Shown here piece by piece: positions 1 through 60,832 of a DNA stretch of 64,000 nt. The notes under the pieces are model-generated. The model was not told the DNA's origin. It saw nothing but the letters and a program-made list of their open reading frames with translations, and ran no database searches. The stretch comes from a virus. Location of the stretch: IMG/VR virus record IMGVR_UViG_3300027861_000018, positions 22,269 through 86,268 of that record, one strand, 5' to 3'. Positions within the stretch are counted from its first letter, which is position 1. Every line of letters starts with the position of its first letter. The position numbers and the translations under genes are program-made.

Positions 1-2299
1 AGGAGTCGGCCGTGCCTGGCGCGTATCCCGCCATCTGTACAAATATCTTGGTGACCTGCTCTTGATACACCAGCACACCCAGTGAGTCAGAACAGATGGA
101 ATCATACAGGGGATGGACTTGCCTCTCATCACGACGTTTGGGGTTCAGCTTCCTCTTTTTGAACTCCGTCGCCAGCCCCGACCGCGCTGGCCCTGGCCTG
201 TTGAGAGCCACCATCGCCACATTGTCTTCGAAGCTATCAAAGGCGATGCCCTCACAAGCTGCATGTGCGCCAGTGGAATCATATTGGAAGATGCCAACAT
301 AATGGTGATCTGTGAATGCCTGAAGCGTCTCTGGGTTATCGAGCGGCAGCAGCTCATAGTCCAGCTTGAGCCCAGGATTGCGCTTCTCTGCCATCTTGCG
401 CGCGTCATTGAGCACGGTCAGGGTTCGAAGGCCCAAGATGTCGAGCTTGAGCAAGCCCATGCCGCCAACGCCGTACATGTCCCACGCCGCCAACTTGACG
501 ATCAGGTTGTTGCGCATGTGCGTTTCGATTGGCACCACATCCGGGAGCGGGACAGGCGAGGTGATGACGCCGGCTGCATGCACGCCCGGCTGCCTGGCGT
601 GGCCCTCCAGCTTCACCACCAGCGGCAAGACGTGCGGGTGGCGTGCATTGAAGTCGCGACACACTTTGAATTCCACAAAGCTGTCTGCCACAGTCTGGCT
701 CGCACGCTCATCACCGCTGGACCGCTCAACAATGGCGCCCGTCACATCATTGAGCTCTCCAAACGGCACACCAAGCACGCGCCCCACATCCTTCAGCGCG
801 CTCTTGCCCTTCATGCGGCCCACTGTACAGATGAGACTCACCTTGTCTCTGCCCCACTTCTCATGCAAGTAGGTGATGACCTCCTCACGCCGCACATCCT
901 CAAAATCCATATCGATATCAGGCATATCGATACGCTCAGGGCTGATGAAGCGTTCGAACAGCAAACCATGCTCAAGTGGATCCAGAGAGGTGATGCCTAG
1001 CAAGTAACACACCAGCGAGCCAGCTGCAGAACCGCGCCCCGGGCCTGTCATGATTGGCGGCTCTGCCATATCACGGCACCAGTTGATGAGGTCGCGAACA
1101 ATCAGAAAGTACCCAGGGAACTTTGCGCAGGCAATCGGCTCCTTTCCTGCCTTGCGCAGTTCCACGTCCAATTCCTTGTCCAATCGTGCCCTGTACTCTG
1201 CGACTGAATATCCTGTGACCTTGGAGCGCCCCTCGATGTCGCGCCAATCCCACCCTTCAGCGCAGAGACGGGACAGCTCTGCCACATCATCGCTGGAATC
1301 ATGAGGCACTTGCGGCACCAATGCCTTGAAGCGGTCGATGTGCATCTTGTAGGTGTGTGCATCAGAGACCTCCACCGTGGCTTCAATGACCTCTGCGGCC
1401 AATTCCTCACCCATGTATGGGTGATTGGCCAAGAACGCTTCCATCATCTCAGCACCGCTGCGCAAGTGGTAGCCCTGCGGCGACCGCGGGTGATCAGGCT
1501 CCTCCATCGTCATCTTGTTCGCCAGGCACAGCAAGATGGTGTGGGCATCGGTGTCGTCAGCATTGATGTAGTGAACGTCATTGACAGCAATGAGAGGCAA
1601 GCCCAATGCCCTAGCGATGCGGATGAATGCCTTGTTGACTCTGCGGTGGAGCGGTCCGGCGTGCGGCATTAGCTCCAGATACATGCGGCCCTTGTAGGCG
1701 GCAGCCAGCTTCTTGGCGGTGCGGGCGGCTTGGGCCATCCGGCCCTGGATGACGTGATCGCCCAACAGGGAATCGGGGCCGCCAAAGCTGATGGACAGCC
1801 CCTCGTTGTGCTCGATGAGGAGCTCAACGTCAACGCGGGGGATGCCTCGATAGCAACCTCCATCATTGTCCCAGGCGATGGACGTGAGGCGCGACAGCGA
1901 CCTGAAGCCGTTGCCCTCCATCACCCTCGCCGTCACATCCCACGAGCGCATCACCTGCTTGCGTGCCTCCTCTGCTCGGATGACTTTTTGGCGCTCCCGG
2001 CCTTCCAGCCCAAGTGCAACGATATCCTCGTCATCCTTGGTCAATCCGTGCTGACGATGGTTGGTCACGACATTGAGCACTGCGCCATAGATGGGGCGTG
2101 GCTGCTCCTCGCCGTCAGGCGTGTGCACATAGGCTGCCTTCTGAAGGTCGTATGCATATCTCAAGGTTGAGGTGTCGGTGACGCACAGCGTGCGCATCCC
2201 TAACTCTCTGCCTCGATTCACATGGGCCCCAAGCTGCCCAAATGCCTGCAGATAACTATACTCTGTGCGGCGGCGCAACTCTTCATATCGCAACGTCAT
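1..2299 (-). CDS. dnaE: DNA polymerase III alpha subunit (family C), truncated at the left window edge
   Basis: Manual translation; absent from the ORF track because its stop lies outside the window. ATG at 2299 overlaps the upstream TGA. The frame contains GPGRGSAAGS, LLFERFISPER, MPDIDMDF, GVHAAGV, KLDILGL, ALNRPGP and GVLVYQEQV, with an N-terminal PHP domain (TEYSYL, VTD, VNDVHY). Confidence 0.96.
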   Translation of the reverse strand, partial: MTLRYEELRRRTEYSYLQAFGQLGAHVNRGRELGMRTLCVTDTSTLRYAYDLQKAAYVHTPDGEEQPRPIYGAVLNVVTNHRQHGLTKDDEDIVALGLEGRERQKVIRAEEARKQVMRSWDVTARVMEGNGFRSLSRLTSIAWDNDGGCYRGIPRVDVELLIEHNEGLSISFGGPDSLLGDHVIQGRMAQAARTAKKLAAAYKGRMYLELMPHAGPLHRRVNKAFIRIARALGLPLIAVNDVHYINADDTDAHTILLCLANKMTMEEPDHPRSPQGYHLRSGAEMMEAFLANHPYMGEELAAEVIEATVEVSDAHTYKMHIDRFKALVPQVPHDSSDDVAELSRLCAEGWDWRDIEGRSKVTGYSVAEYRARLDKELDVELRKAGKEPIACAKFPGYFLIVRDLINWCRDMAEPPIMTGPGRGSAAGSLVCYLLGITSLDPLEHGLLFERFISPERIDMPDIDMDFEDVRREEVITYLHEKWGRDKVSLICTVGRMKGKSALKDVGRVLGVPFGELNDVTGAIVERSSGDERASQTVADSFVEFKVCRDFNARHPHVLPLVVKLEGHARQPGVHAAGVITSPVPLPDVVPIETHMRNNLIVKLAAWDMYGVGGMGLLKLDILGLRTLTVLNDARKMAEKRNPGLKLDYELLPLDNPETLQAFTDHHYVGIFQYDSTGAHAACEGIAFDSFEDNVAMVALNRPGPARSGLATEFKKRKLNPKRRDERQVHPLYDSICSDSLGVLVYQEQVTKIFVQMAGYAPGTADS

Positions 2300-2898
2300 G
2301 CTTGCTCTCCTGCAAGGCCAAGCCAATCGACAACTGCCGCTTCGACGGCCGACCCTATGTGCTTCTCACCATCCCAGTAAGGAACCTGGCTCACGTCCAA
2401 TCGCAAGGTAGGCAGAGCTGATGCTAGGCGCACTGCGGTGTTGAGCCTGGACCGTACCCCAGACAATCGCTCCGGATGCCGTCTGGTGTCATCTGGCGGC
2501 AGGCGTGCCATCAAATTCTCAACCGGGGCATCCAGGTGAACGATGCGGGCGTCAAGCGGGCGCAGAGTTGACGCCCACCACCTCACCAGCGCAGCGTGGG
2601 CCAGCGGCCCTTCAGGAGCATAGGCCACGCCTGATGGCATCGACCTGTCCAGGAACAACCTGGACGACCAGGCCAAGCCAGCGTTGTGATGAAGGCACGC
2701 CAGCACATCGGCCGCATACACGTCATCCACATAGGTGTTCACAGGCACGCCGCGCTCTCGCCACTCTGCCAGTTGATCCTGCGACAAGCGCCCATCCCTC
2801 CACGCCATCGCGCGATATGGCAGGAAGTCATAGCGCGCGAGTGACTCAGACAGGGTCGTCTTGCCGACACCTTCTGGGCCTTCCAGAACGAGAATCAC
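2296..2898 (-). CDS. Thymidylate kinase-like deoxynucleoside monophosphate kinase
   Basis: N-terminal P-loop ILVLEGPEGVGKTT and the dTMP-kinase-type DR motif (FLDRSMPSGVAY); GTGA/ATGA overlaps with both neighbours. Confidence 0.8.
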   Translation of the reverse strand: MILVLEGPEGVGKTTLSESLARYDFLPYRAMAWRDGRLSQDQLAEWRERGVPVNTYVDDVYAADVLACLHHNAGLAWSSRLFLDRSMPSGVAYAPEGPLAHAALVRWWASTLRPLDARIVHLDAPVENLMARLPPDDTRRHPERLSGVRSRLNTAVRLASALPTLRLDVSQVPYWDGEKHIGSAVEAAVVDWLGLAGEQA

Positions 2899-4205
2899 GC
2901 GAGTGCTTTCATGAGGGCGGCGTGGGCCGCATCCATCATTCTGAAAGCAATGGCCAGATCACGGGCGCTGATGTTCATTGGCGGATTGAACCTGATGGCG
3001 CCAGCATCGCGCCACGTCATGAGGAGCAGGCCGGCAGCGTGACAAGCGTCACAGAATTGACGCCCATTGTATGGCAAATCATCCCATTCCAGGTCAAATG
3101 CCTTCATCAAGCCATAGCCGTGCACCTTCTTGACGTATGGGCGCTCATTCAGAGCCTTCTCGATGAGGTCGCCCTTGACGATGACCTCGCCCAGGTGGTC
3201 ATCCAGCCACCCGATGAAACGAGTGGAATGATGGCACACCCACTCAGACCCTGCCATACTGTTGAAATGGGTGCCCGGGGTCATCGCCTTGGCAATGGAA
3301 GCGTTGGCGATGACTGCGCTCATAGGGAAGCCCATGGCCAAACCCTTGCCAAGGCAGAGAATGTCAGGGCGCAAGTCAATCTCAGGGTGCTGCCAGCTGC
3401 TGTAATGGCCGCAGCGACCCGCGCCAGCCTGAACATCGTCAAAGATGATCAAGATGCCCTTCGTGTCCGCAAACTCTCGCAACCTCTGGAAGAACACCTT
3501 GGGATAGGTTGTGATGCAATTGTTGCCAAGAACTGGCGCCATGTTGATGGCGCCCACCTGATCCCAACGCAGGTCAGGATCATCGCCCGGCGGCAAACCT
3601 CCGGTGGGCCCCTCCTTCAGGAGGGAGAACCACCAGTTGTCACCATTGTCGAAATACTCGACAGTCCCAAACAACGGGGGCATCGGGCCATACCCCTCCT
3701 TGTGATATGGGCTATCGGTTGAATCAGAGCACGCCATGGCGAAGGCTGTACGCCCATGGAAGTTGCCCTTGAGAGTGACGACGCCCAGCTTGGGGTTGCC
3801 GTCACGGTCTTTGTGCGTGCCATGCTTGGTCTGCCACAATCGGGCTAGCTTGATGGCTGTCTCATTTGCCTCGGCGCCGCTGTTGGCATAGAACACCTTG
3901 CCGCAGTCGCCTTCATCTGTATAGCCTGTGCGATTGACCAACAGAGCCGCATTGTACTCGCGGTGCGGGCCGTGATAGGCGCGAGGCAGGCGGTGGGGTG
4001 CGTTGGTTGTGAGTAGCTCCATGGCTGTCTTCTGAAGAATTGGCGTGTTGTAGCCCATTGAGGCCACGCCTTCATCGTTCCAACAGTCAAGGAGTTTGAG
4101 CCCTGTGTCAGTGATCAGCCACGACCCCTTGCCTTTGACAAAGCACAACGGTACGCGGTGGGTGATGTCAAACAGGTATTGGGCTGGCTTGATGGTGTCG
4201 TCCAA
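2895..4205 (-). CDS. Class-III PLP-dependent aminotransferase (ArgD/ornithine aminotransferase-like, divergent)
   Basis: Motifs KGKGSWL, NSGAEANETAIKLAR, NFHGRT, IFDDVQAGAGRCG, PDILCLGKGL (PLP lysine) and IRFNPPM. Confidence 0.92.
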   Translation of the reverse strand: MDDTIKPAQYLFDITHRVPLCFVKGKGSWLITDTGLKLLDCWNDEGVASMGYNTPILQKTAMELLTTNAPHRLPRAYHGPHREYNAALLVNRTGYTDEGDCGKVFYANSGAEANETAIKLARLWQTKHGTHKDRDGNPKLGVVTLKGNFHGRTAFAMACSDSTDSPYHKEGYGPMPPLFGTVEYFDNGDNWWFSLLKEGPTGGLPPGDDPDLRWDQVGAINMAPVLGNNCITTYPKVFFQRLREFADTKGILIIFDDVQAGAGRCGHYSSWQHPEIDLRPDILCLGKGLAMGFPMSAVIANASIAKAMTPGTHFNSMAGSEWVCHHSTRFIGWLDDHLGEVIVKGDLIEKALNERPYVKKVHGYGLMKAFDLEWDDLPYNGRQFCDACHAAGLLLMTWRDAGAIRFNPPMNISARDLAIAFRMMDAAHAALMKALA

Positions 4206-4214
4206 GATGTCCTC

Positions 4215-5330
4215 TCAGGATGTGCGAAGGGCGTGGGCTGCGACGGTTGCCGCGTGTTGCGGGTCCTCCCCTGACTCCAAGGGGCGGCCTGTATACGGGT
4301 CACGACCCCAGAAAATGGCGCGGCGCATTGCCTCCTCTTCGATGTCAAACATAAGCCTGATTGTGCCATTCTTGTAGGCAGCTCGGGCCTGGTCTGCCAG
4401 GGGTGAGGATTCTCGGCCGAGGAATAGCGGACAGACCGGCAGATTGTGGTCGCGGCCATCAAACCTGCGCTGGATGTCCTCTGGGAAAATGCACCCCGTG
4501 TACTTGGTTCCCTTCATGCACGGCGGGGTGACGAGGCGGCCAAAGCACGGGTGGATGTGGGTTGTGAGTTGGCTGATGATCCCGTTGATGATCGGGCCCC
4601 AATACCCAAGCTGGAGGATGGTGCAGCCTCGCTTCCCAACGATGTGCTGGAGTGTTCGCAGATTGAGGGTCCAACTGAGACGTGAGGTGGCGCCCAGTGG
4701 GATGAGGTCACGGGCATCCTCCAGCGGGAGGCCGCTGGAAGCCCAGCGAGCATACATTGCCTCGATGGTCTCCATGTCCTTGCGCCACCTCAGCACCGCG
4801 TCTGGCCCCATCGCAATCACAGTATCTGGGGTGCGGAAGGCACTGCGCTCGCTGGCGAACGTTGACATGTCGAGAAGTCGCATGGATTGGCTCCACGCGC
4901 TCATGTCTGCCACTTCAGGGATGGTGTCGACTGTGATCCAGTCAGCACCAACGCGCACATCAGGCTTGGTCCCGACGCGATGGCGCACCATCTGCTCCCG
5001 CCAGCCGATGCTGGCATTCTCAATGATGAAGTTGAAACTAACTGCCTCGACAACAGGAACGCCCTCCATCACGCTGGTCATCAAATCTGCCAGCTCAACG
5101 TCACTCATGATCAGCACTTGGCCGACGATGTCATCCAACTCTTCAGTCGTCTTTGACTGAAGCCAGATGATAGCGATGACCTGCATCACGCCCAGACGTG
5201 GATCGGAATTGATGCGGCGCTGAAGGTGGAAGGGCATGCCGCTGACGCCAACCAGTGTGACCTTGGGCGGGTCGGTTGGCTTGACGAGGTCCATCAAGGT
5301 CTCCAGAGAAACGGGGTTAGTCTCGACCAC
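4215..5330 (-). CDS. thyX: Divergent ThyX-like flavin-dependent thymidylate synthase family protein
   Basis: EQMVRHR, SQSMR, GLPLEDARDLIP and NLRTLQHIVGKR match ThyX blocks. The true start may be the ATG at 5294, which has GGAG upstream. Confidence 0.75.
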   Translation of the reverse strand: MVETNPVSLETLMDLVKPTDPPKVTLVGVSGMPFHLQRRINSDPRLGVMQVIAIIWLQSKTTEELDDIVGQVLIMSDVELADLMTSVMEGVPVVEAVSFNFIIENASIGWREQMVRHRVGTKPDVRVGADWITVDTIPEVADMSAWSQSMRLLDMSTFASERSAFRTPDTVIAMGPDAVLRWRKDMETIEAMYARWASSGLPLEDARDLIPLGATSRLSWTLNLRTLQHIVGKRGCTILQLGYWGPIINGIISQLTTHIHPCFGRLVTPPCMKGTKYTGCIFPEDIQRRFDGRDHNLPVCPLFLGRESSPLADQARAAYKNGTIRLMFDIEEEAMRRAIFWGRDPYTGRPLESGEDPQHAATVAAHALRTS

Positions 5331-5344
5331 TCTACAGCGGCGCG

Positions 5345-6298
5345 CTACCTATCAGACAGGAATAGTGGCTTGTTGACATTGATTGTTGCGTCCGGGTTCC
5401 TGCCCCAGTTGGTCTGAACCATGGCGTGGCGCACCTGTTTCCACGACCACACGCGCACAATGTCGCTGTGGACCGGCAAAGACTGATTCCACGGCTGATC
5501 CATCAGCAAGACCGGCTTGACGTGGTGGGTGACCAACTCCAAGCAGTGCTTGTCACGGTCCTCCACGAATGCGACCACCTGTGCCGGCATGATGCTCTGG
5601 TGCACAGCATCCCACTTGTCCTTGTTGAAGAGCAGGATGTCGCACGGCACGCCGTTGTCTTGTAGCCATTGCACGGTATCGGGCCGCACCCGGGCATGCT
5701 CCCATACAGGCCGAGCGGTGACGATGGCCACCAAGCACCCTGCCTCCTGGGCTTGGATGAGCGCCTCTTTGGCCCCCGGCACGAGATCCAAGGTTTGGAA
5801 CCCGCCATCAGCATACCACTGCGCCTTCTTCTCTTCAGTGGAGAGAGTGCCGACCGTTGGGTTGCCGTACTGGCCGCCGGTGGCCTCAAAAAATTTGGAC
5901 AAGTCGGCGACGCAGCTGTCGAGGTCTGTGACAAACACTCGCCTACCCGCCAACTCCACGCGGTATTGATGGAACTTCTGCTCCACATCCAAGGTCTTGG
6001 CGGCAAATCGTTTGCTGATTTGCTTTGGAGTCATGCCGGCAAGGTGAGCGATTGCCATCGCATACTTGAGCACATCAACCATTTCTTCCACGGCATTGCC
6101 GCCGTGCCCTCTCTCTTGCCTCACGACGTGAGGCTTGCGCCGTAGGCTGCGCGCAAGCTCGGTCGCCTCTTCATGCAGGCCCAGCAGCAACTCATCCATG
6201 TATGCAGAGCGTTCTGCGTCGGTCATGAGGTCACGGTCATACCACAGCGTCTGCTGTGCAGCCTGTGCCACAAAAAGGTCTTCAATGGTCGTTGTCAT
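5345..6298 (-). CDS. Fusion of a MazG/dimeric-dUTPase-like NTP pyrophosphohydrolase and a HAD-family deoxyribonucleotidase
   Basis: N-terminal LHEEATEL...EEMVDVLKY (all-alpha NTP-PPase motifs); C-terminal HAD motifs DLDSCVAD, IVTARP and FVEDR. Confidence 0.8.
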   Translation of the reverse strand: MTTTIEDLFVAQAAQQTLWYDRDLMTDAERSAYMDELLLGLHEEATELARSLRRKPHVVRQERGHGGNAVEEMVDVLKYAMAIAHLAGMTPKQISKRFAAKTLDVEQKFHQYRVELAGRRVFVTDLDSCVADLSKFFEATGGQYGNPTVGTLSTEEKKAQWYADGGFQTLDLVPGAKEALIQAQEAGCLVAIVTARPVWEHARVRPDTVQWLQDNGVPCDILLFNKDKWDAVHQSIMPAQVVAFVEDRDKHCLELVTHHVKPVLLMDQPWNQSLPVHSDIVRVWSWKQVRHAMVQTNWGRNPDATINVNKPLFLSDR

Positions 6299-6573
6299 TC
6301 CGCCTCCTCTTCAGGCTCGTCTACATCCGAGTTGTCACACATGTACTTCACGCCTGTCCCGACAAGGGGGTGCACAGCGCAAGGCACCAAGGTCCCGGGT
6401 GCGCACTTTGCGACCAGCGTGTGGGCGCGGTCCGGCTTGATGCTGATTGCGGCCATGCAGTCTACCTCAATCACCCTTGTCGGCTTGGCATCAAATGCCA
6501 GAAACGTATCTGTCAAGATGCCGAGGGCAGCGGCAATACCGATAGCGACAACAGCCCAGCGCACTCTAGTCAT
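6295..6573 (-). CDS. Small membrane or exported Cys-containing protein
   Basis: ATG at 6573 forms an ATGA overlap with the upstream stop; hydrophobic N-terminus WAVVAIGIAAALGIL, four Cys and an acidic tail. Confidence 0.6.
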   Translation of the reverse strand: MTRVRWAVVAIGIAAALGILTDTFLAFDAKPTRVIEVDCMAAISIKPDRAHTLVAKCAPGTLVPCAVHPLVGTGVKYMCDNSDVDEPEEEAE

Positions 6574-7538
6574 GCGGTCAACTCCTCGTGGCAAGCGTCG
6601 ACCACCTGATCCACTGTGATGCGTGAATTCCATTGCGCAAAACGCCCTGCCAATCGAATATTTGACCCAGAGCCAGCGCGCCAAGTGCGCCAAGTCACAG
6701 GGTGAAGGTGCCCCGGCAGCTGGCGCGGTGGCGCGAGCAACGTACTGCCCAGACGGGCTAAGTCGACGGCCAAGGAGTGCGTGCTGCGATCATTCCACTC
6801 AAGCTCCAATGCGATGTTGCCATCATCATCAACAACAGGGCGAACCCTGTGAATTGCCTCCAGCCATGGCGTGTACGTGTAATCGTAATGCCCCAGATGC
6901 GCCGTTCTGCCGGTGAGCGAGATTCTGGCGACCTTGAGCCACTCATGGGGGCACACGGGCGCTTCCCTGCCCTCCAGCTGAAGCAACTTGGCCAAAATGG
7001 GGAGTGGCACCGTGCTCGTGATGCGGCCGCTGGCGCTCTCGATCCATCGACGTGGACCAACACATGCCATAGGACCTGATATGACTGTCGCGTGCGCCTG
7101 TATGATGTCGCAGTGTCGCTCCACCAAGCCAAACAGACGGCTGAAGTCTGTCAAGACTCGCTCGCCCCCAGTGCCGCCAAAATTCATGACGCCCGGCCCA
7201 TATCCTTCATAGGTCCCGCGAGTCTTGCCATAATGCAAGCGCTGGACCGCCTCCAGGTGACCGCCCAAGCCTTGAGGATAGGGCAGCACCCGGCCTTTAT
7301 GTGTGAGCACCCCTCCGCTCATTGCCTTCAGCGTGAAGTCCATCTTGTGCGCGTGCAGCAGAGCCCTCACCCCGACGCTATTGCGAAGGTATTGGAAACC
7401 GCCCTTGGCATAGCTACCACCCAGATGGCTGGGCTCAATGACAGCAACTGTCTCGCCCTTCCTCCATGCGGCAAGGGATAAAGCGATGAGGCAGCCAGAC
7501 ATGCCGCCGCCCAAGATCACGTGGTCATAGTGCGCCAT
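6570..7538 (-). CDS. FAD-dependent oxidoreductase (UDP-galactopyranose mutase/protoporphyrinogen oxidase-like fold)
   Basis: Rossmann motif VILGGGMSG followed by VIE..HLGG; STVPLP; C-terminal LAGRFAQW..TVDQVV. Confidence 0.8.
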   Translation of the reverse strand: MAHYDHVILGGGMSGCLIALSLAAWRKGETVAVIEPSHLGGSYAKGGFQYLRNSVGVRALLHAHKMDFTLKAMSGGVLTHKGRVLPYPQGLGGHLEAVQRLHYGKTRGTYEGYGPGVMNFGGTGGERVLTDFSRLFGLVERHCDIIQAHATVISGPMACVGPRRWIESASGRITSTVPLPILAKLLQLEGREAPVCPHEWLKVARISLTGRTAHLGHYDYTYTPWLEAIHRVRPVVDDDGNIALELEWNDRSTHSLAVDLARLGSTLLAPPRQLPGHLHPVTWRTWRAGSGSNIRLAGRFAQWNSRITVDQVVDACHEELTA

Positions 7539-8584
7539 TAGGCAATACTCTCTGTTATGCGCGGCCAGTCACCGCTCTTGATGATCCGTGCCAATACTCG
7601 CGCGACTTGGCTCACGTGACGCTCCTCGACCCCCTCAATGACGGTTGGTCGTCGGGCATCCTTCCACCGCTTGACGCGCAACGTCTTGGGCAAAACAGCC
7701 CTGGCCATCTCCACCATTGCATCAGGCGCTACCAATTGAATCTTGATCATGGGCTGACGCTTGGATGGATACAGATACATCACGGCCAATGGAGTCGCCT
7801 TGGCGTTGTTCTTGCGGACGTACATCACATAGTGATCGCTTCTGCGAAGCCTGTCCCGGTAGAACATGCCCCCAGCGTGACACCGGTGTCGATACTCTCC
7901 AGCAAATTCAACAGGGATTGCTCTGGCAAAGGCCGCCATCATCTTCTTGGCGATGGCTCGTGACTCAGCATACACATACGGGTCGTGAGGGAACCCGATG
8001 CGCGGGCGGGGTGAGCCAGGCTTGCTTGATGCGGTGACCTCTTGCTTGCTCTGCGCATCAGGCGTGGGCTGGGTGGGCCGAAGCACAACTGACCGATACT
8101 GAGTGGCAGAAGGCGGTCCTTCAGCATCATCATCGGCCGCCATGAACCATATCGTCCGCTCTGGAGTCGTGTTGACCGCGGCTGACCTGATTTGAATCTT
8201 GCGACACATATTGCGCCAGACACAGGGCGGCTCGGCCCCGGGGCCGATCAGGCCGTCGCAAGTTGGGTCGCCGGGCTCATGGTGGCCGACACACCCAGGG
8301 TTGTTGAATCTGTGCCTGGCTGCTGCCGCCCAGTGGGGCAACCCCTCCGGAATGGACCCGTGCTCCACCCACGTCACAGTTGCCGTCTGCTTGTTCACAG
8401 CAACGCATACGCGCCCCCACTCATACGTCTCGACGAGCAGACTCCATCCCTTGTCCCTCAGGCGCACAGGGCGATGCTGCTTGGTTGGCCTGGGGTCCAG
8501 CCCGAAGGCTGCGATGTAGTCATGGACCATCTTGGCATCCATGCGGGCGCCAATGGCGACACGGTATAGCGTTTCAGACTTCAT
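7538..8584 (-). CDS. Hypothetical protein with a Cys/His cluster
   Basis: 348-aa ORF overlapping both neighbours; GCVGHHEPGDPTC...CVWRNMC. Confidence 0.7.
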   Translation of the reverse strand: MKSETLYRVAIGARMDAKMVHDYIAAFGLDPRPTKQHRPVRLRDKGWSLLVETYEWGRVCVAVNKQTATVTWVEHGSIPEGLPHWAAAARHRFNNPGCVGHHEPGDPTCDGLIGPGAEPPCVWRNMCRKIQIRSAAVNTTPERTIWFMAADDDAEGPPSATQYRSVVLRPTQPTPDAQSKQEVTASSKPGSPRPRIGFPHDPYVYAESRAIAKKMMAAFARAIPVEFAGEYRHRCHAGGMFYRDRLRRSDHYVMYVRKNNAKATPLAVMYLYPSKRQPMIKIQLVAPDAMVEMARAVLPKTLRVKRWKDARRPTVIEGVEERHVSQVARVLARIIKSGDWPRITESIA

Positions 8585-9260
8585 AGCCGCGCTCCCTGAG
8601 CAGTGCTCTGGCAGCCCTGCGAATGCGCCCTGCTTCGCACTCCACCTGCCCGTATGTCATGTCCAAGTACATGGCGATGTGCCGCTTGGTGACCTTGAAC
8701 ACACCTGAATTGCCTGTCAGGTTACGCACCATGGCGTGAAGCTCCCAGTCAGGATTGACCATTGCCTTGAGAATCTTGCGTTGGCCTTTGTTGAGACGAG
8801 CCATCAACAAGATGACTATGGTGCGCGCCTCCGTATTGCCCTCCCCATAGTCAGCCACCTGCTCTGGGGTCAAGCCGCTGATCCCCTGTGCCGGCAAGCT
8901 GTCGACGTATCTGCTGCTGCCATCCTCTGACACCAGGCGGTCCAGCGAGCAGGGGCGGCGAGGCACCTTGTTCCACTCGCCTGTCCCCACGTCCTGCTCC
9001 CACACCCTCGGCATGCGCATCAGAGCATATGCCTTGTTGGCGATGTTCCGATACTCATTGTCCAAGAAATACCCCACATAATTGGGGAGCTTCACGCCCT
9101 TGCTTGGGTCGTATGTCTGAACTGCGCGATGGGCGTGCCAACGCCCTTCTTGGAGCAGGTCGGCATACTCGCCCACGCCCTTGCGCACCAGGACACGGAC
9201 CTTGAAATGGATGAGGCCGATGAATTGCGGCTCGACATCCTCATATCTCAGATTGTTCAT
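8574..9260 (-). CDS. Sigma-70-family RNA polymerase sigma factor-like protein
   Basis: Region-2-like YADLLQEGRWHAHRAVQTYDPSKGVKLPNYV; SLD motif; C-terminal HTH TKRHIAMYLDMTYGQV; RBS CTGGAGTAC. Confidence 0.8.
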   Translation of the reverse strand: MNNLRYEDVEPQFIGLIHFKVRVLVRKGVGEYADLLQEGRWHAHRAVQTYDPSKGVKLPNYVGYFLDNEYRNIANKAYALMRMPRVWEQDVGTGEWNKVPRRPCSLDRLVSEDGSSRYVDSLPAQGISGLTPEQVADYGEGNTEARTIVILLMARLNKGQRKILKAMVNPDWELHAMVRNLTGNSGVFKVTKRHIAMYLDMTYGQVECEAGRIRRAARALLRERGYEV

Positions 9261-9275
9261 TTTGTACTCCAGGGG

Positions 9276-11291
9276 TTATGCGTGTCGGTGGAGGTTGAAC
9301 CAGTGGGGCGCGACCTCTAATATCATGTCAGCCAATTGGCCTAAGTTGTTGCAGGTGCGGTGATTGGGGTAGTAGTGGCGCACGGAATCATCCATGATTC
9401 CGAACCCCCAAACCTCAATGCCAGCTGATATCGCTGCGGCAATGCACGCCTTGAGCTCGCGGCGCATTTTCGCCGAGTTGCCTGGCGCTGCGGGTTGGCC
9501 GTCAGACAAGACCATCAAGATGCGGCGCTTGGCTCTGCGGCACCGCAGCTCTTGGAGAGCCCACTTGACCGAGTCTGGGTCAGCATTCTCCCACAGCCTA
9601 ACCTCTGCTGCCACGCGGCTGCGAACCTGCGACCAGTTCTCATCCCAATCGCACCAGTTGTAGTGCTCAATGGGCGACAGACGACCGTAATGATGCGTGT
9701 GCGTGTAACTTCCGGTGATGGAGTTGCCTGCCGTGAAACCTGTGGCACTAAGCTGAATGCTGTTAGGCGTTGTCCTGTTGATGGAATCCAGCAAGTCACC
9801 CAGAAGCAGGATGCCCTGCTGCATCAGGGCGAATTTGGAACCTGCCATGGAGCCAGAGCAGTCGCCCAACAGCTTGATAGCCACATCATGCGTCTCGCCC
9901 GGCACCAGGCGTGTCCTGATGTTATCGACTGGGCGCCCTGCTTCGCGGATGTTTGCGCGCCACATGGCGCGGCGGTCAAGTCGCCCGTGGCGCTGAGCAT
10001 ATACCTTTGTGGACTGAGACCGCGTAGCCAGCAAGGTGCGCATCCTAGCAGACAGCGTGGCCGACTCCTTGCTAACCCCCTTCGCGATGCGCTCTGCCGC
10101 AGATAGGGTGGCCGCTGTGACGGCTGGCGTCGCAATCATATCCTTCTTGGCTGCGCCGGGGTGCACCGTGTAGTCGGTCATCCCATCCGCCTTGGCCGTG
10201 TTGGTGGGCGCAGCGCCAGCTTGCCTGATTATGGCTTCATCAATCGCTTCATGAATAGGCGACTCAGTGTCAGTGAGCGTGAGAGACCCGGCCTTGAGCG
10301 CCCTAAGTGCCTTCAAGACCTCCTCTGCTGACACTGGCGCCATGTCTGGGCTCTCGGCGCTCTTGTCGCGCTTGGCGCCTCCACCCCCTTCATCCCCTTC
10401 ATCCCCTTCACCCTCTTCACCCTCTTCACCCTCTTCAGCAGGGGCCTCGCTGTCACCGCCTGGCGACATCATACCTTTCAACTCTTCATCAGGGATGGAA
10501 GTGCCGGCGCTGTAAAGCGCGTCAGCATAGCACAGCGCCAGATTCCAAGCATCCCAAACGCTCCCAAGGGTCTCTGGACTGAGCAAGGCATGGAAGCCGT
10601 CAAGAGCCTTCAACACGGTCAGGGACTCTTGGCACAAGAAGCTGTAATCATAACCCCAGGCGTGGAAGATGATCCCGCACCCAACCTGATACGTTGGGTC
10701 AACTGATCTGGGATTAGCTGCCAGCTTCTTGCCCCAACTCCGATGGGCGTGATCACGCCCGGCCTTGAGGTGCTGCGCCACGCCTCGATAACGCTCACCA
10801 GCCCGCCGCTCAATTCGCACATCCTCCACCACATTGAACATCATAGCAACAAGATTGGCGCCAAGTAGTCCGGCGACGACATTCAGAAGGCCGACAGGGG
10901 TGGTGCGATAGGTGCATCGGGTCCCTGGCGGCAGGGCGAGTAATTTGATGTGGTCTGTGACTATGAGGCACGTCCTCTCCCAGATGGCGGCATTGATGGC
11001 AACTGACGCCCTGTCGGCCGCGGCGTGCTCTGCCTCCACCTGCACTTTGACGTGCTCTGATTCATGATTGACCTTGGCCCACACCAAGTCCATATCTTCA
11101 TCAGCCAGCTCTGCGACGTTTGTCGGCAGAGTGACCGTCCCTAGCATGTCAGTCTTGCACTGACCTGACTGGAAGATGACTCGCAGGTCGTGGCGGTCAC
11201 TGAACGTTTGGGCGATACGCTCAAGGCGCCCCCCTATGAGGGGCAATCGCGTCTCAATGGACTTGGCATTCTTGATAGCAGCTTTTGCCAC
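9276..11291 (-). CDS. CobT-like VWA-domain protein (MoxR partner)
   Basis: N-terminal HESEH and NVVEDVRIER; acidic EEGEEG linker; GRLD; MIDAS DCSGSM; ENAD; VLSDGQP. Confidence 0.87.
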   Translation of the reverse strand: MAKAAIKNAKSIETRLPLIGGRLERIAQTFSDRHDLRVIFQSGQCKTDMLGTVTLPTNVAELADEDMDLVWAKVNHESEHVKVQVEAEHAAADRASVAINAAIWERTCLIVTDHIKLLALPPGTRCTYRTTPVGLLNVVAGLLGANLVAMMFNVVEDVRIERRAGERYRGVAQHLKAGRDHAHRSWGKKLAANPRSVDPTYQVGCGIIFHAWGYDYSFLCQESLTVLKALDGFHALLSPETLGSVWDAWNLALCYADALYSAGTSIPDEELKGMMSPGGDSEAPAEEGEEGEEGEGDEGDEGGGGAKRDKSAESPDMAPVSAEEVLKALRALKAGSLTLTDTESPIHEAIDEAIIRQAGAAPTNTAKADGMTDYTVHPGAAKKDMIATPAVTAATLSAAERIAKGVSKESATLSARMRTLLATRSQSTKVYAQRHGRLDRRAMWRANIREAGRPVDNIRTRLVPGETHDVAIKLLGDCSGSMAGSKFALMQQGILLLGDLLDSINRTTPNSIQLSATGFTAGNSITGSYTHTHHYGRLSPIEHYNWCDWDENWSQVRSRVAAEVRLWENADPDSVKWALQELRCRRAKRRILMVLSDGQPAAPGNSAKMRRELKACIAAAISAGIEVWGFGIMDDSVRHYYPNHRTCNNLGQLADMILEVAPHWFNLHRHA

Positions 11292-11334
11292 GGCGCACTC
11301 CTGGTTGCGGGCATAGGGGGCGACCCGCTCAGCT

Positions 11335-11363
11335 ACCTTAGCTGAAGCGCCGCCACAAGGCTA
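11335..11363 (-). promoter_or_regulatory. Putative promoter TAGCCT-N17-TAAGGT with AT-rich upstream element
   Basis: Intergenic; same architecture as the promoters at 12845, 57093 and 57880. Confidence 0.55.
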
Positions 11364-11417
11364 ATTAATTTTATGGCATTCGCCGATAACGCTGGCTGAT
11401 GCCAAGCGCGACCAAGC

Positions 11418-12776
11418 TCAACGGCCGACCACCTGACGGATGATGTCACCCACCGTCTTGTGATCTGGGTCTGCCGGATCAATGCCATTGGTGACACTAA
11501 GCCGAGCTGCCAGATGAATGTTCTTTGTGGCGTGCGCGAGACGCGCCCACACCAGCGACTTCCGCGGGCTGATTGAAGCTCGACAACGCGCCTTGGCCTT
11601 GGCTTCATTGACCTTGATCGCTGTCTGAACAATCATCTTGGCGTCGGAAAGTGCGATGGATGTCTTTCCAACCAGCATCTTGACCCACACCTTGTCAGCT
11701 GGGTACGCGTGGCGCATCTTGATGCCCCATCGATCCAGCGCTGCTGCATTGAGGACGAATGTGCCAGCATAGTCGCCAGTCATATCACCTTGCCCAGACG
11801 TGTTGGCGCTTGCCATGATGCGGAAAGCAGGGTGTGCGTCGACCACTTCGCCGCTAGCGAGGAGCAATTGACAGTGAGGTTTGCCGTCAGCAATGGCCTT
11901 CAATGGGTCGTGGTGGCGCTCAGTCAACCTCTGCAAGACCGTGTGCACCTGGGGCGGCGCAGCGTCAATCTCATCAATCAGAAGCAGATGGCCGCGGCGC
12001 ATGGCGGTTACCACAGGGCCATCTTCCCATGCTGTGACGACACTCCCCTCATCGGTCTCGACCATGACCACGTCACCAACAAGATCAGATGGGCGCATAT
12101 CCCCATAGAAATTGACCCTGGTCACGGGTTGATTCGACAGGGCGCTGATGATGTTGACCAGCGAAGTCTTGCCGCTTCCGGTGGGCCCAATGATGAGCAC
12201 ATTTTCAACCATGGCGATGCCCAGGGCAATCTGCGCCAGAGCTGCCTCGACGCTCCCGCTGATCTCATATCGGTCGTCGTAAGGTGCGACCATGGATGCA
12301 TCCGCAGCACCCCACCCATCCCAGATACCAAGGCGTGCCTTGGCCGAACCGCACGGAAGCTCCATCCATTTCGTGACTCGCGGACCAATGTGCCCGAGCG
12401 GCGCCGGCGCTGCCGCAAGCGAACTGCTCAGCGAAACCCCCTCTTCAGATGCGGGTGCGGGCGCTGGGGTGGGTGCTGGCTCTGGTGCAGGAGGACGGGC
12501 AGCACCCTTGGCTCCGGCTCTGATGCGGGCCGCATTGTACGCGCTCTGCGTCGGCGCTCCCGGATACTTGAGCCGATATGCCTCCACGCGGTCAAGTCCA
12601 GGTTTCAACATCTCTGGATGAGCCTTTCCCAGATGGACGGGCAGAGCGTGAAGCCTGCGCCCGCACTCGCAGCAAATGATTTTGTCGGCGCGACTTGTCT
12701 CATCACGTCCCATGGTGGTCGCCATGATCACCCTGTCTCGCAGCGACAGGTCTGCGATATCGATACGCTTGCTCAT
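11418..12776 (-). CDS. CobS/CbbQ/NorQ-like MoxR AAA+ ATPase with N-terminal Ros/MucR-like zinc finger
   Basis: Walker A GPTGSGKT, WEDGP, Walker B LLIDEID, ASANT and LNAAALDRW. N-terminal IICCECGRRLHALPVHLGKAH...YRLKYP. The ATG at 12776 follows CTGGAGTAC. Confidence 0.88.
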   Translation of the reverse strand: MSKRIDIADLSLRDRVIMATTMGRDETSRADKIICCECGRRLHALPVHLGKAHPEMLKPGLDRVEAYRLKYPGAPTQSAYNAARIRAGAKGAARPPAPEPAPTPAPAPASEEGVSLSSSLAAAPAPLGHIGPRVTKWMELPCGSAKARLGIWDGWGAADASMVAPYDDRYEISGSVEAALAQIALGIAMVENVLIIGPTGSGKTSLVNIISALSNQPVTRVNFYGDMRPSDLVGDVVMVETDEGSVVTAWEDGPVVTAMRRGHLLLIDEIDAAPPQVHTVLQRLTERHHDPLKAIADGKPHCQLLLASGEVVDAHPAFRIMASANTSGQGDMTGDYAGTFVLNAAALDRWGIKMRHAYPADKVWVKMLVGKTSIALSDAKMIVQTAIKVNEAKAKARCRASISPRKSLVWARLAHATKNIHLAARLSVTNGIDPADPDHKTVGDIIRQVVGR

Positions 12777-12800
12777 CCGTGTACTCCAGTGTGCCGTGGC

Positions 12801-12829
12801 GCCGGGGTTGCCGGGGTTGCCGGGGTTGC
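12801..12829. repeat. 9-bp tandem repeat GCCGGGGTT x3
   Basis: Directly visible in the 5' leader of the AAA ATPase gene. Confidence 0.85.
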
Positions 12830-12844
12830 GCGTTGACTGACGGA

Positions 12845-12874
12845 ACCTTAACTGAGCAAGGCACCTTGCGGCTA
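12845..12874 (-). promoter_or_regulatory. Putative promoter TAGCCG-N18-TAAGGT with upstream A-tract
   Basis: Intergenic; shares CAG(C/T)TAAGGT with the 11335 promoter. Confidence 0.5.
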
Positions 12875-12906
12875 CAACTTTTTTTGCCTTAAAGCAATAT
12901 CTGTGC

Positions 12907-13914
12907 TCAATCCCAAGGATTGTGAAAGAGCTTTGCTGCGGCAGCAAGTCCATCAAGCGGAGTGGCAACGAGCGCGGCCTCAATAATGTGACGGCGGGCA
13001 GCCTTTTTGTTGGCCACAGTATCGGGGTCAATGCCGCGAGGCAACTTGACCACCTTCATTGAGCGGAATCGATGAGCAATGTGAGAGCATTTGACCACCA
13101 CGTCTTGGTATGCCTCGCCATCAGGCACCACAATTAGCTCTGGCGGGTCCAGCTCAGCCAATAATTCCACTTGTGGGTCCCGCAAGTGGCTGCCGAAATA
13201 AGGGCACGACTGGAAGCCCCAGCCATCCCATCGTATGGCGTCAAAAATGCCCTCCATCACGTATACGGGGGCACCTGGGTCCAATCTGTCAAAGCCGCCC
13301 AAGAAATTGGCTTGGAGGGTCCCTGGGTTGAGATACTTGAATTTGGACCTGCCGGACATGTCCCGAGCAACAAAGCTCGTCATGCCGCCGCACACAACAG
13401 GAATGACCACGCGCTCGCGATACTTGCCACTCATGCAGTAGCCCATCCCCCAACGTCTAGCAGCTGATTGATTGATGCCCCTGTTCTTCAAGTATGGCGG
13501 GATGCGATAGGTGTTGCGACCCCTGTCCCAGCAAGGCCTGAAGCCCGGCGGCATCGGCACCGAGAGATCAACGGCAGCGGCGGCGCTAAGCGTCCCATCC
13601 TTCAAAGACTGGAACATCTGGGCCAGCTCTGACATTGGTCGAGCTTTGATGATGCCGCGAGCGAAGCGCCCAACGACCTCCACCGCTTGGGCGTATCCGC
13701 AACCCTCAATCTGCATCACCAGGGCGGCAATGTTGCCTCGTGCTTTGCAGTGCCCGGAATAGCAGTTGAACTTCAACTTGCGAATATTCACATACATCTT
13801 GTCGGACCGACCGCAGAAGAGGCAACTGCGCAAGACCAATTCATCCCCATCCCGGTGCTTTTGACGGCGCAGGACAGAGAGATTCCTGAGCAGATAGTCT
13901 TCTGCCGCACTCAC
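12907..13914 (-). CDS. DNA primase (zinc-binding plus TOPRIM domains)
   Basis: CLFC...FNCYSGHC zinc finger; YLKNRGI; KYLNP; MEGIFDA; VVPDG; GIDP. Confidence 0.88.
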   Translation of the reverse strand: MSAAEDYLLRNLSVLRRQKHRDGDELVLRSCLFCGRSDKMYVNIRKLKFNCYSGHCKARGNIAALVMQIEGCGYAQAVEVVGRFARGIIKARPMSELAQMFQSLKDGTLSAAAAVDLSVPMPPGFRPCWDRGRNTYRIPPYLKNRGINQSAARRWGMGYCMSGKYRERVVIPVVCGGMTSFVARDMSGRSKFKYLNPGTLQANFLGGFDRLDPGAPVYVMEGIFDAIRWDGWGFQSCPYFGSHLRDPQVELLAELDPPELIVVPDGEAYQDVVVKCSHIAHRFRSMKVVKLPRGIDPDTVANKKAARRHIIEAALVATPLDGLAAAAKLFHNPWD

Positions 13915-18551: not shown

Positions 18552-18590
18552 GGGCAGACCTCCGGCACTACCCTACAGCGCACACGCGGA

Positions 18591-60211: not shown

Positions 60212-60832
60212 GTTATCACGACCCTACAGCTTGCCCCAGGAGGTTGACGACTTGGATGCGATGAGTACCCACCTTACACAACCCACCATTTAGGGCGCAA
60301 ATTCTAAGGCAATCAAGCACCTTTTCCACACTCTCAATCCCACCAAATAATGGGTATGGATAACAGCCTATTCACACCTTGGAGGTATTGAAAACCACTT
60401 TCAGGGCAGAAGGGGCCAACTAACCCGCCCCGGGGCCACCCCCACCCCCACACAATCCCATAATTCAATGGGGCTGGATCACGACTTTGCCGGGGCCAAG
60501 GGGCTTAGAGCTCCACAGTTTCTGGAATCCCAATGAGGGTGCGGGAAGGGGGGTATGAGAATCTGAGCAACTCGGCTCTGGGCGTGACGGTCGGCTCGGG
60601 CTTCATTGGCGCCATGGTCAACTGGCCAAGGGCGCTCTGGAACTGGGTCGTTGGCATGCTTGCCAGGTTCACCTGGCGCATTGATGGTCTGCCTTGGTTC
60701 AGCCCATGGCATTGGCTTGGCGCGGGTATCGACCTAAGGTGCCCGGCATCTTGACTGAGTTTCCAATCAATGGAGTGCGCGTTGGTCGGCCTTGGGGGTT
60801 GTGAGGCTGTGTTGGCGACCTGGCGGTGTTGG

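Follow-up and report, generated by a model that had tools for sequence, protein, structure and literature searches.

The Bacillus phages SPO1, SP8 and phi-e obtain 5-hydroxymethyl-deoxyuridine (5-hmdU) via a synthase that modifies deoxyuridine monophosphate (dUMP), a pyrophosphatase or nucleotidase that removes the thymidine nucleotide, a kinase and their own polymerase. The dihydroxypentyl-deoxyuridine (dihydroxypentyl-dU) of phage SP-15 is made before DNA synthesis, and according to a title referenced in the same article ribose label enters the pentyl chain of its dihydroxypentyl-uracil (PMC5977210). The characterised amino-thymidine hypermodifications, as far as they are covered by the available text of two articles, all follow a post-replicative logic that begins with 5-hmdU (PMC8989533, PMC13458397), and 5-aminomethyl-dU occurs in PaMx11 (PMC11472151). 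Class-III transaminases have 0 occurrences in the available part of PMC8989533. Here we describe a run of genes on the minus strand, at positions 2296-7538 of a 64,000-nucleotide stretch of viral DNA (hereafter the window), which comprises bases 22269-86268 of the 86,268-base IMG/VR virus record IMGVR_UViG_3300027861_000018. We propose that this run makes a C5-substituted, amine-bearing deoxyuridine nucleotide before replication, used for some or all of the thymidine, a reading that we hold with about even confidence. The run would then be a pre-replicative base-replacement pathway assembled from different enzymes than the known ones.

Six open reading frames (ORFs) on the minus strand of 2296-7538 lead into dnaE, and the genes concerned are as follows (aa, amino acids).

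6570..7538, minus strand: flavoprotein binding flavin adenine dinucleotide (FAD), with an amine-oxidase/protoporphyrinogen-oxidase/UDP-galactopyranose mutase (UGM) fold predicted from the AlphaFold2 (AF2) model, Foldseek and the ESM Atlas, 322 aa
6295..6573, minus strand: small ORF of 92 aa with one hydrophobic N-terminal helix, ATG at 6573, ATGA overlaps at both ends
5345..6298, minus strand: fusion of 317 aa, predicted from profile comparison with the PDB to join an N-terminal MazG-like all-alpha NTP pyrophosphohydrolase to a C-terminal NT5C-type HAD 5'(3')-deoxyribonucleotidase
4215..5294, minus strand: predicted ThyX-like flavin-dependent pyrimidine C5-modifying enzyme, 359 aa, with a Cys4 C-terminal extension (Pfam Thy1)
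2895..4205, minus strand: divergent class-III (omega) aminotransferase, 436 aa, TTG start (Pfam Aminotran_3)
2296..2898, minus strand: P-loop kinase like thymidylate and deoxynucleoside kinases, 200 aa (phrog_761 thymidylate kinase; profile against the PDB)
2..2299, minus strand: 5' part of dnaE (Pfam DNA_pol3_alpha, E 1.1e-73, with PHP and finger domains; phrog_405)

The initial annotation had described a tightly packed run into dnaE with overlaps at 6570, 6295, 2895 and 2296, and all of these were read directly in the sequence. The FAD-gene stop TGA (6572-6570) overlaps the ATG of the small ORF (6573-6571; ATGA, 6573-6570), whose stop TGA (6297-6295) in turn overlaps the ATG of the HAD gene (6298-6296; ATGA, 6298-6295). 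The aminotransferase stop TGA (2897-2895) overlaps the GTG start of the kinase gene (2898-2896; GTGA, 2898-2895), and the kinase stop TGA (2298-2296) overlaps the ATG of dnaE (2299-2297; ATGA, 2299-2296). The ThyX-like and aminotransferase genes are separated by a spacer of 9 nt with GAGGA ahead of the TTG start of the transaminase, and the sole real gap in the run is one of 50 nt between the HAD and the ThyX-like genes. At the upstream end, the stop TAA (7540-7538) of a gene for a 348-aa protein shares 1 nt with the FAD-gene ATG in a TAATG junction (7540-7536).

Co-occurrence of ThyX, Aminotran_3, MazG and FAD oxidoreductase genes in phage genomes, which had been suggested as a check on the pathway, was indeed found. 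A viral scan with the single ThyX-like sequence gave no match; an alignment-based IMG/VR scan with the same protein recovered 42 loci, on all six frames of which hidden Markov models of the five enzyme families were run. All five enzymes were present together in 27 of the 42 loci, corresponding to 20 distinct ThyX-like sequences. Two further loci are cut by contig ends but fit the five-enzyme pattern: L006 has four of the five enzymes and its contig ends before the place of the kinase, and L042 begins inside the ThyX-like gene and carries transaminase and kinase. The lowest tblastn identities to the window were 23% for the flavoprotein, 27% for HAD, 35% for the ThyX-like protein, 24% for the transaminase and 25% for the kinase, identity across the related loci falling to 23-46%. 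The gene set is kept while its order is permuted, the transaminase gene preceding the ThyX-like gene in L013, L015, L017, L019/L020 and L037. Since the five enzymes are syntenic in 27/42 loci that were recovered via the ThyX-like protein alone, the arrangement is more than chance, and the run is a translationally coupled, deeply conserved module beside the phage's own DnaE.

The small 92-aa ORF, which the initial annotation had included in the set as a membrane gene, had to be removed from it. It gave no Pfam, PHROG or NCBIfam match, tblastn and blastp found 0 counterparts in 43 related loci, and L005, the nearest relative, has nothing between its FAD and HAD genes. It is lineage-specific and lies outside the conserved module.

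For the ThyX-like protein the earlier class assignment stands, and the start was corrected to the ATG at 5294, giving 359 aa. Pfam Thy1 (PF02511) matched residues 93-237 with 61.5 bits against a cut-off of 24.8 (E 1.2e-16; 60 bits in the genome scan). The ThyX equivalog TIGR02170 gave 47.6 bits, under its cut-off of 87.9, and a profile of 22 relatives (A1) gave only 25 bits against Thermotoga maritima ThyX. Among 34 distinct relatives RHR (104-106), S137/R139, EDAR and K221/R222 are invariant or nearly so, and C224, C259, C268 and C288, which are borne by a C-terminal extension of ~135 residues, are invariant. RHR and S137-x-R139 lie ~30 residues apart as a split signature, and R139 is followed by L or I in place of Y (SMRL in the ThyX-like protein); the contiguous ThyX signature, which we take to be RHR-x7-S-x-R-Y, is thus not present. 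R195 of EDAR and R222 of KR, both invariant in the 34 relatives, align with R147 and R174 of T. maritima (numbering taken from the profile alignment, with a 12-residue tag offset), which are presumably the nucleotide-phosphate arginines. Where canonical ThyX has its His motif, the alignment shows VVEAV for the clade of the window and GEH for the other one; the former lacks the residue that would match T. maritima His53. In the AF2 model (predicted local distance difference test, pLDDT, 77) the extension is confident and the insert poor, and the Foldseek match to ThyX was weak (E 2.5e-3, TMq 0.26-0.31). The family comprised 252 relatives at E<=0.001, with PF02511 in 120/120 among the matches listed, and many of them are on contigs of 80-117 kb. 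When one genome each of 185,579 prokaryote species was searched for the family with profile A1, 0/74 pattern matches were confirmed.

Of the protein initially termed MazG-HAD, the HAD half was confirmed and is of NT5C type, while the MazG half was visible only by profile search, Pfam MazG giving no match at E<=0.01. Pfam NT5C reached 23.4 bits, just below the cut-off of 24.8, and positions 125-235 of a profile of the family (A3) matched the human cytosolic and mitochondrial deoxyribonucleotidases cdN/mdN in the PDB (E 9.5e-7 to 6e-5). Together with the invariant DxD nucleophile D125/D127, this match identifies the HAD half, as judged from its residues, as a predicted NT5C-type deoxyribonucleotidase. 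Positions 35-105 of the same profile matched the MazG-like structures 2q73, 2gta and 5ie9 (E 6e-5 to 4e-3); for dCTPase the E-values were no better than 0.2-0.3. E43, E44 and E47 are nearly invariant, and D75, K78, D125, D127 and K228 are invariant; E43, E44, E47 and D75 may correspond to the acidic EExxE...D metal cluster that we take to be the MazG-like motif. In seven loci (L010, 9147-9959; L007, L011, L012, L018, L023 and L046) an ORF of 250-270 aa with no Pfam match lies between the HAD and ThyX-like genes or beside the ThyX-like gene; it is not present in the window.

The assignment of the aminotransferase to class III was upheld by Pfam Aminotran_3 (PF00202), with 188.8 bits against a cut-off of 30.5 (E 1.7e-55). 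K287 and D256 are invariant in 23 sequences, and Q259 and R399 nearly so. K287 is presumably the lysine that binds pyridoxal phosphate (PLP), D256 the pyridine-binding Asp, and R399 occupies the position we take to be that of the carboxylate-binding Arg; by these residues the transaminase appears intact. Its best NCBIfam match was acetylornithine transaminase, with 193 bits against a cut-off of 372, and none of the 25 NCBIfam models listed, the ArgD/AstC/OAT/GabT/PatA equivalogs, reached its cut-off. The closest protein in the PDB was acetylornithine aminotransferase 2eh6 (E 1.1e-39); succinylornithine, ornithine, GABA and putrescine transaminases are also among the closest solved structures. 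As we understand them, all of these enzymes convert terminal aldehyde groups to amines and back, a chemistry that by analogy fits the amination of an aldehyde.

The class of the dNMP kinase was likewise confirmed, as profile comparison placed it in the thymidylate-kinase/deoxynucleoside-kinase superfamily with an invariant P-loop and D84/R85. By Pfam it gave AAA_28 with 28.4 bits and Thymidylate_kin with 16.4 bits, under the cut-off of 27. Its profile (A4) matched SPbeta YorR in the PDB (E 7.8e-11), thymidylate kinases from E 1.8e-9, and then deoxynucleoside kinases. G7, G12, K13, D84 and R85 are invariant, and D84-R85 together with the P-loop agree with DR(Y/H/S), which we take to be the thymidylate/deoxynucleoside kinase motif. 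The dnaE gene that follows runs past the window start; the whole ORF (L003:1880-6595) encodes 1571 aa from an upstream TTG, and starting from the ATG at 2299-2297, which overlaps the kinase stop, it is 9 codons shorter. In related loci the dnaE ORFs fall into groups of ~1255-1303 aa and ~1545-1623 aa, with one of 1990 aa, which fits intein-type insertions in many of these polymerases, the 1571-aa ORF of the window included. In 15 loci (L012:12808-13287 and 14 others) a protein of ~125-160 aa with CXXC zinc-finger-like and ExoX-like_C matches is encoded between the kinase and dnaE genes; it is lacking in the window, where the kinase gene overlaps dnaE directly.

The flavoprotein had been called an FAD oxidoreductase, which holds as far as an FAD enzyme is concerned and can be narrowed to a fold of amine-oxidase/protoporphyrinogen-oxidase/UGM type. 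Sequence matches were confined to the N-terminal Rossmann motif (Pfam DAO and NAD_binding_8; PDB profile), and no Pfam Amino_oxidase match was obtained by sequence. The AF2 model, built with 20 relatives in the alignment, had a pLDDT of 90.9. In a Foldseek search of the PDB it matched 6-hydroxynicotine oxidase, NicA2, putrescine oxidase, monoamine oxidase, renalase and UGM (E ~1e-11 to 1e-10; TMq 0.55-0.67; renalase TMq 0.56, TMt 0.57). Its structure neighbours in the ESM Atlas were Amino_oxidase/protoporphyrinogen-oxidase clusters (TM 0.75-0.78), and its own Atlas family is viral. The model thus indicates the two-domain FAD fold of flavin amine oxidase, protoporphyrinogen oxidase or UGM, with an N-terminal GxGxxG. 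Of 1.84 billion representatives searched by profile, 1122 matched at E<=1e-3 and 173 at E<=1e-30, and the family representatives are nearly all of 300-350 aa. H102, K105, T106, R107, R231, R299 and R306 are invariant; the Lys, Arg and His among them could bind phosphate and would be suited to a substrate with negative charge.

By sequence comparison, the nearest cultured relatives of the ThyX-like enzyme appear to be Listeria phage LIS04 and the Pbunaviruses. The top cultured match to the ThyX-like profile was LIS04_124 (114.6 bits, E 2.2e-36), which gave no other match in the phage collection at E<=1e-8. Unlike the window's enzyme it is without RHR and the four Cys, and its neighbourhood includes a nucleoside deoxyribosyltransferase, an HD protein and PolA, as in the PolA-type loci described below. 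LIS04 is listed, in the available text of PMC12686479, among phages with a polymerase resembling those of T-modified phages. PB1 gp61 ('FAD-dependent thymidylate synthase'; L048:8848-9765) reached 62 bits against the ThyX-like profile, over core and extension. It shares all four Cys and the FWG tail with the ThyX-like enzyme and differs from it in having RTR for RHR and in the absence of the ~30-residue insert. PB1 gp68 (hypothetical, 333 aa; L048:6623-7624) is homologous to the flavoprotein over its whole length (hhalign probability 96%, E 4.3e-9). Both genes are closely followed by gp59 (annotated as a polynucleotide kinase), an exonuclease gene and that of the DnaE-type polymerase, gp57; the match of gp59 to HAD was not significant (probability 17%). 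SP-15 gp130 was also considered as a cultured counterpart and was rejected, since profile A1 found no match in the SP-15 genome and LIS04_124 matched nothing else in the phage collection.

Virion DNA of the Pbunaviruses F8 and 14-1 resists enzymes with TG-containing sites and has new nucleosides, of 362 and 390 U, in place of about a quarter of its thymidine, as given in the available part of a preprint, where the authors read them as sugar-alcohol or aldopentose derivatives and assign no genes to them (PMC12191111). The mass of the 362-U nucleoside of F8 equals that of 5-(tetrahydroxypentyl)-dU, C14H22N2O9, and a 5-hmdU-tetritol ether has the same formula and is indistinguishable from it by mass. 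By homology, PB1 gp68 and gp61 are put forward as candidates for the genes behind the hypermodified thymidine of F8 and 14-1. The available text of PMC13229309 contains no mention of Pbunavirus, PB1 or ThyX.

An oxidase-type flavoprotein followed by an omega-transaminase is the standard two-step conversion of an oxygen function into a primary amine. This pair and the base-replacement logic led us to prefer a reading in which a C5-substituted dU that bears an amine is made before replication. What is observed are the genes, with their family membership, coupling and conservation; every substrate and product in the following scheme is inferred. The MazG-like half would convert dUTP or dTTP to the dNMP, and the NT5C-like half would dephosphorylate the unwanted canonical dTMP. 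With reduced flavin, the ThyX-like enzyme would place a carbon substituent onto C5 of dUMP that is not finished as a plain methyl. The flavoprotein and the class-III transaminase would then oxidise and transaminate this substituent to a primary amine, and the thymidylate-kinase-like enzyme would phosphorylate the modified product, which host kinases might not accept, for incorporation by DnaE.

How the amine would be installed may be pictured in several ways. In the initial annotation the flavoprotein oxidised a one-carbon unit to an aldehyde that was then aminated; the amination agrees with the chemistry of the transaminase relatives, but oxidation of an alcohol does not agree with the reaction expected of the flavoprotein fold. 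A route from hydroxymethyl via formyl to aminomethyl has its weak point in this fold and, as one option within the proposed reading, seems rather unlikely to us. Another option, by analogy with MnmEG/MnmC, is that an amine would capture the exocyclic methylene, followed by oxidative trimming. The Pbunavirus masses and the shared pair of ThyX-like protein and flavoprotein suggested a further one, in which the Cys4 ThyX-like enzyme, instead of transferring methyl or hydroxymethyl, would use its flavin to join C5 of dUMP to a longer sugar-derived chain and flavoprotein and transaminase would aminate a chain hydroxyl, giving an amino-polyhydroxyalkyl-dU that replaces thymidine; to this we assign a small chance.

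Beyond the five-enzyme run no nucleotide metabolism was detected in the 86-kb record, in which no ThyA, second Thy1, dCMP deaminase, dUTPase or ribonucleotide reductase was found, with positive controls; for the ThyA-type dUMP hydroxymethylase (PF00303), likewise not found in the record, the control was positive in 10/14 genomes. Among 50 proteins scanned, with many short ORFs outside the scan, there was no Pfam match to post-replicative hypermodification families. This includes 5-HMUDK and aGPT-Pplase, for which none of the 50 gave a Pfam match, the known 5-HMUDK being left out of the kinase comparison. The families MnmE, MnmG and MnmC gave no match in Pfam or NCBIfam.

A number of points weigh against an amine-bearing base made before replication. 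The modified base of this lineage is predicted from genes alone, and genes absent from the record, which is linear and 84% complete by CheckV, may sit on its missing part. Many phages with ordinary DNA encode ThyX, dTMP kinase, MazG or 5'-nucleotidase, and flavoproteins of the amine-oxidase fold oxidise C-N or C-C bonds and are not known as alcohol oxidases. The transaminase was not found in PB1 or LIS04, and the partial, TG-context modification of Pbunaviruses suggests post-replicative installation there. One locus (L014) has the ThyX-like, kinase and DnaE genes and lacks the transaminase in the 1,082 nt visible upstream, and another (L038) has the ThyX-like gene, the transaminase and a weak kinase-like match, with no flavoprotein or HAD in 10 kb. 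In 11 of the 42 loci a ThyX-like gene with the same key residues occurs without transaminase or flavoprotein, so that the three are not an obligate trio. In a maximum-likelihood tree of the ThyX-like proteins the two contexts part with one change (weak support, 56/84); the 27 loci are thus not 27 independent events, and the link to the transaminase may be a single ancient event in loci descended from one ancestor.

The 11 loci with the ThyX-like gene only (L029, 6334-12756; L016, L022, L027, L028, L030, L039-L041, L044 and L045) are of a PolA replication type, with PolA, SNF2 helicase, PD-(D/E)XK, AAA_24 and DUF669 proteins, and two near-copies among them gave a 30-bit kinase-like match. Here the ThyX-like gene adjoins one for a radical SAM/SPASM protein, and an HD-domain YfbR-like 5'-deoxynucleotidase and a nucleoside 2-deoxyribosyltransferase-like protein are encoded nearby. 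This set may represent another tailoring route on the same intermediate. Since this HD-type enzyme is non-homologous to the HAD protein, the pairing of a ThyX-like enzyme with a dNMP phosphatase recurs in two forms.

These loci also bear on a rival function of the run, namely an ordinary dTMP supply by a true ThyX, a dTMP kinase and a pool-sanitising or recycling fusion, packed as early or middle genes with an unrelated auxiliary pair of transaminase and flavoprotein, which would serve amino-acid or polyamine metabolism or some other function directed at the host. Such a supply, which we consider unlikely while granting it a real chance, agrees with the 11/42 loci in which the ThyX-like gene lacks this pair, with the name ThyX given to the family by the Joint Genome Institute and PF02511 in 120/120 among relatives listed, and with the retention of nucleotide- and flavin-contacting residues. 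The pair itself resembles polyamine-catabolic types, the flavoprotein being similar to putrescine oxidase and the transaminase to putrescine and ornithine transaminases. However, a dTMP synthase beside a dUMP/dTMP-type 5'-nucleotidase would be self-defeating, given the specificity that we take cdN/mdN to have. Transaminase and flavoprotein moreover stay in the nucleotide/replication block at 23-40% identity despite reordering, and the ThyX-like protein has a split signature and, in the clade of the window, no equivalent of His53. Another role for the flavoprotein would be that of a mere electron-transfer partner, a reductase or oxidase recycling the flavin of the ThyX-like enzyme via the Cys4 site, with the transaminase acting on a non-nucleotide substrate. 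The co-occurrence of flavoprotein and Cys4 ThyX-like protein even in the transaminase-less PB1 and the presence of renalase, an oxidase of NAD(P)H isomers of similar size, among the fold matches speak for it. We nevertheless regard it as very unlikely, since in the 11 PolA-type loci the Cys4 ThyX-like protein is unaccompanied by a flavoprotein (E<=1e-3), and since canonical ThyX, to our understanding, reduces its own flavin with NAD(P)H.

A post-replicative scheme of the 5-hmdU type, in which the ThyX-like enzyme makes 5-hmdUMP, the kinase acts like 5-HMUDK on DNA and a free amine donor is attached on the polymer, would be in line with the shared logic of the characterised amino-thymidine hypermodifications, as far as the two articles cover it (PMC8989533, PMC13458397), and with the partial modification in TG context that the available part of the preprint gives for Pbunaviruses (PMC12191111). 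An amine donor of this kind was the initial annotation's own alternative, and the solved relatives of transaminase and flavoprotein use free polyamines or amino acids. Against this stand the absence of a ThyA homologue from the genes found in the record, the proximity of the kinase to YorR and thymidylate/deoxynucleoside kinases in the PDB comparison, from which the known 5-HMUDK was left out, and the MazG-like/NT5C fusion, which fits pool editing better. Twenty (20) further proteins gave only terminase, portal, Mu-F, protease and HNH Pfam families, in a scan that left many small ORFs outside and could have missed a transferase. We judge the post-replicative scheme to be quite improbable, and keep the synthesis of an amine-bearing C5-substituted dU on free nucleotides as the preferred reading.

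The module lies in a minus-strand replication block that spans window positions 1 to ~18.5 kb. Upstream genes of the block encode a UvsW-like helicase, an IstB-like loader, DnaB, primase, a MoxR-type ATPase and a CobT-type von Willebrand factor A (VWA) protein; next come the genes for a sigma-like protein and for a 348-aa protein without a family match, followed by the enzyme run and dnaE. Beyond the window, downstream of dnaE, are genes for RecA, Mre11/Rad50-like proteins, a RuvC-like protein and a 5'-3' exonuclease, and the remainder of the window carries lysis, tail, head, portal and terminase genes. The CobT-type VWA protein (671 aa) and the MoxR/AAA_5 ATPase (537 aa), encoded at 9276-13031, are kept in the replication block of most related loci. 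Two further features adjoin or lie within the run.

7538-8584, minus strand: gene for the upstream 348-aa protein, stop TAA 7540-7538
5329..5337, minus strand: CTGTAGAGT motif in the HAD/ThyX-like spacer, candidate phage promoter element

The 348-aa protein was considered as a seventh member of the pathway and rejected; it gave no Pfam, PHROG or NCBIfam match. In L007 and L021 it and the sigma-like protein (window 8574-9260) form one fused ORF (623 and 635 aa), and no direct similarity between the two window proteins was found. The 348-aa protein is probably transcription-related, and the two may form a two-part phage transcription factor. The 50-nt spacer carries CTGTAGAGT together with a GGAGA ribosome site. 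CTGTAGRGT occurs on the minus strand at 5329-5337, 18570-18578 and 60221-60229, that is, 3 copies in the window against 0.35 expected, a count reached in 1/100 shuffles; CTGTAGAGT is, as context, a possible phage promoter element. Consensus sigma-70 promoters (5 found, 4.7 expected) and terminators (7 found, 8.4 expected) were at chance in the window.

The G+C content is ~58%. The single public run containing the stretch is a seawater DNA metagenome, which may be the source sample, and no RNA run containing it was listed. A near-identity DNA search with window positions 1-8600 against 50,697 phage records gave no match. In tblastn against the phage collection, matches to the transaminase were all at <=30.5% identity and largely in unannotated or bacterial-looking records; the top identity for DnaE was 33%, and the lineage is therefore without a close cultured relative in that collection.

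If the proposed reading is true, amine-bearing phage DNA would be made on free nucleotides by a ThyX-type synthase and a nucleotide-acting class-III transaminase. In the full-text literature, with subscription journals and supplements outside the search, neither a ThyX-type route nor a nucleotide-acting class-III transaminase for amine-bearing phage DNA was found, nor a description of a gene set of ThyX and aminotransferase in phage hypermodification. The module is widespread in uncultured phages of ~80-116 kb and gives a lead for the thymidine hypermodification of therapeutic Pbunaviruses, which share two of the proteins. The reading would also bear on the evasion of restriction and CRISPR, on sequencing bias in viromes and on the enzyme toolbox for functionalised DNA.

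Compared with canonical ThyX (T. maritima TM0449), the ThyX-like enzyme retains the Thy1 fold, RHR, SxR, EDAR and the distal Arg, and differs in its split signature, in having no Tyr after SxR and in its Cys4 extension. In the tRNA cmnm5U/nm5U pathway (MnmEG and the FAD domain of MnmC; cmnm5U, 5-carboxymethylaminomethyluridine; nm5U, 5-aminomethyluridine), flavin and methylenetetrahydrofolate deliver a methylene to C5 of uracil, which is captured by an amine and trimmed to aminomethyl, an analogy that is discussed in the available text of PMC8989533. MnmEG and MnmC act on RNA polymers and are, flavin use aside, unrelated in sequence to the window enzymes. M6, ViI, PaMx11, PhiW-14 and SH-Ab 15599 employ 5-HMUDK and aGPT-Pplase together with PLP decarboxylases, radical SAM and FAD enzymes. 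The module would probably share with them the outcome, thymidine with an amine on its C5 substituent, but the systems of these phages begin with a ThyA-type hydroxymethylase and end on the polymer, and such enzymes were not detected among the proteins scanned. With SPO1, SP8, phi-e and SP-15 the module shares the pre-replicative logic of synthase, removal of the canonical nucleotide, kinase and own polymerase; in contrast to them its synthase is of ThyX rather than ThyA type, its polymerase is DnaE, and it has two enzymes more, a class-III transaminase and an amine-oxidase-fold flavoprotein.

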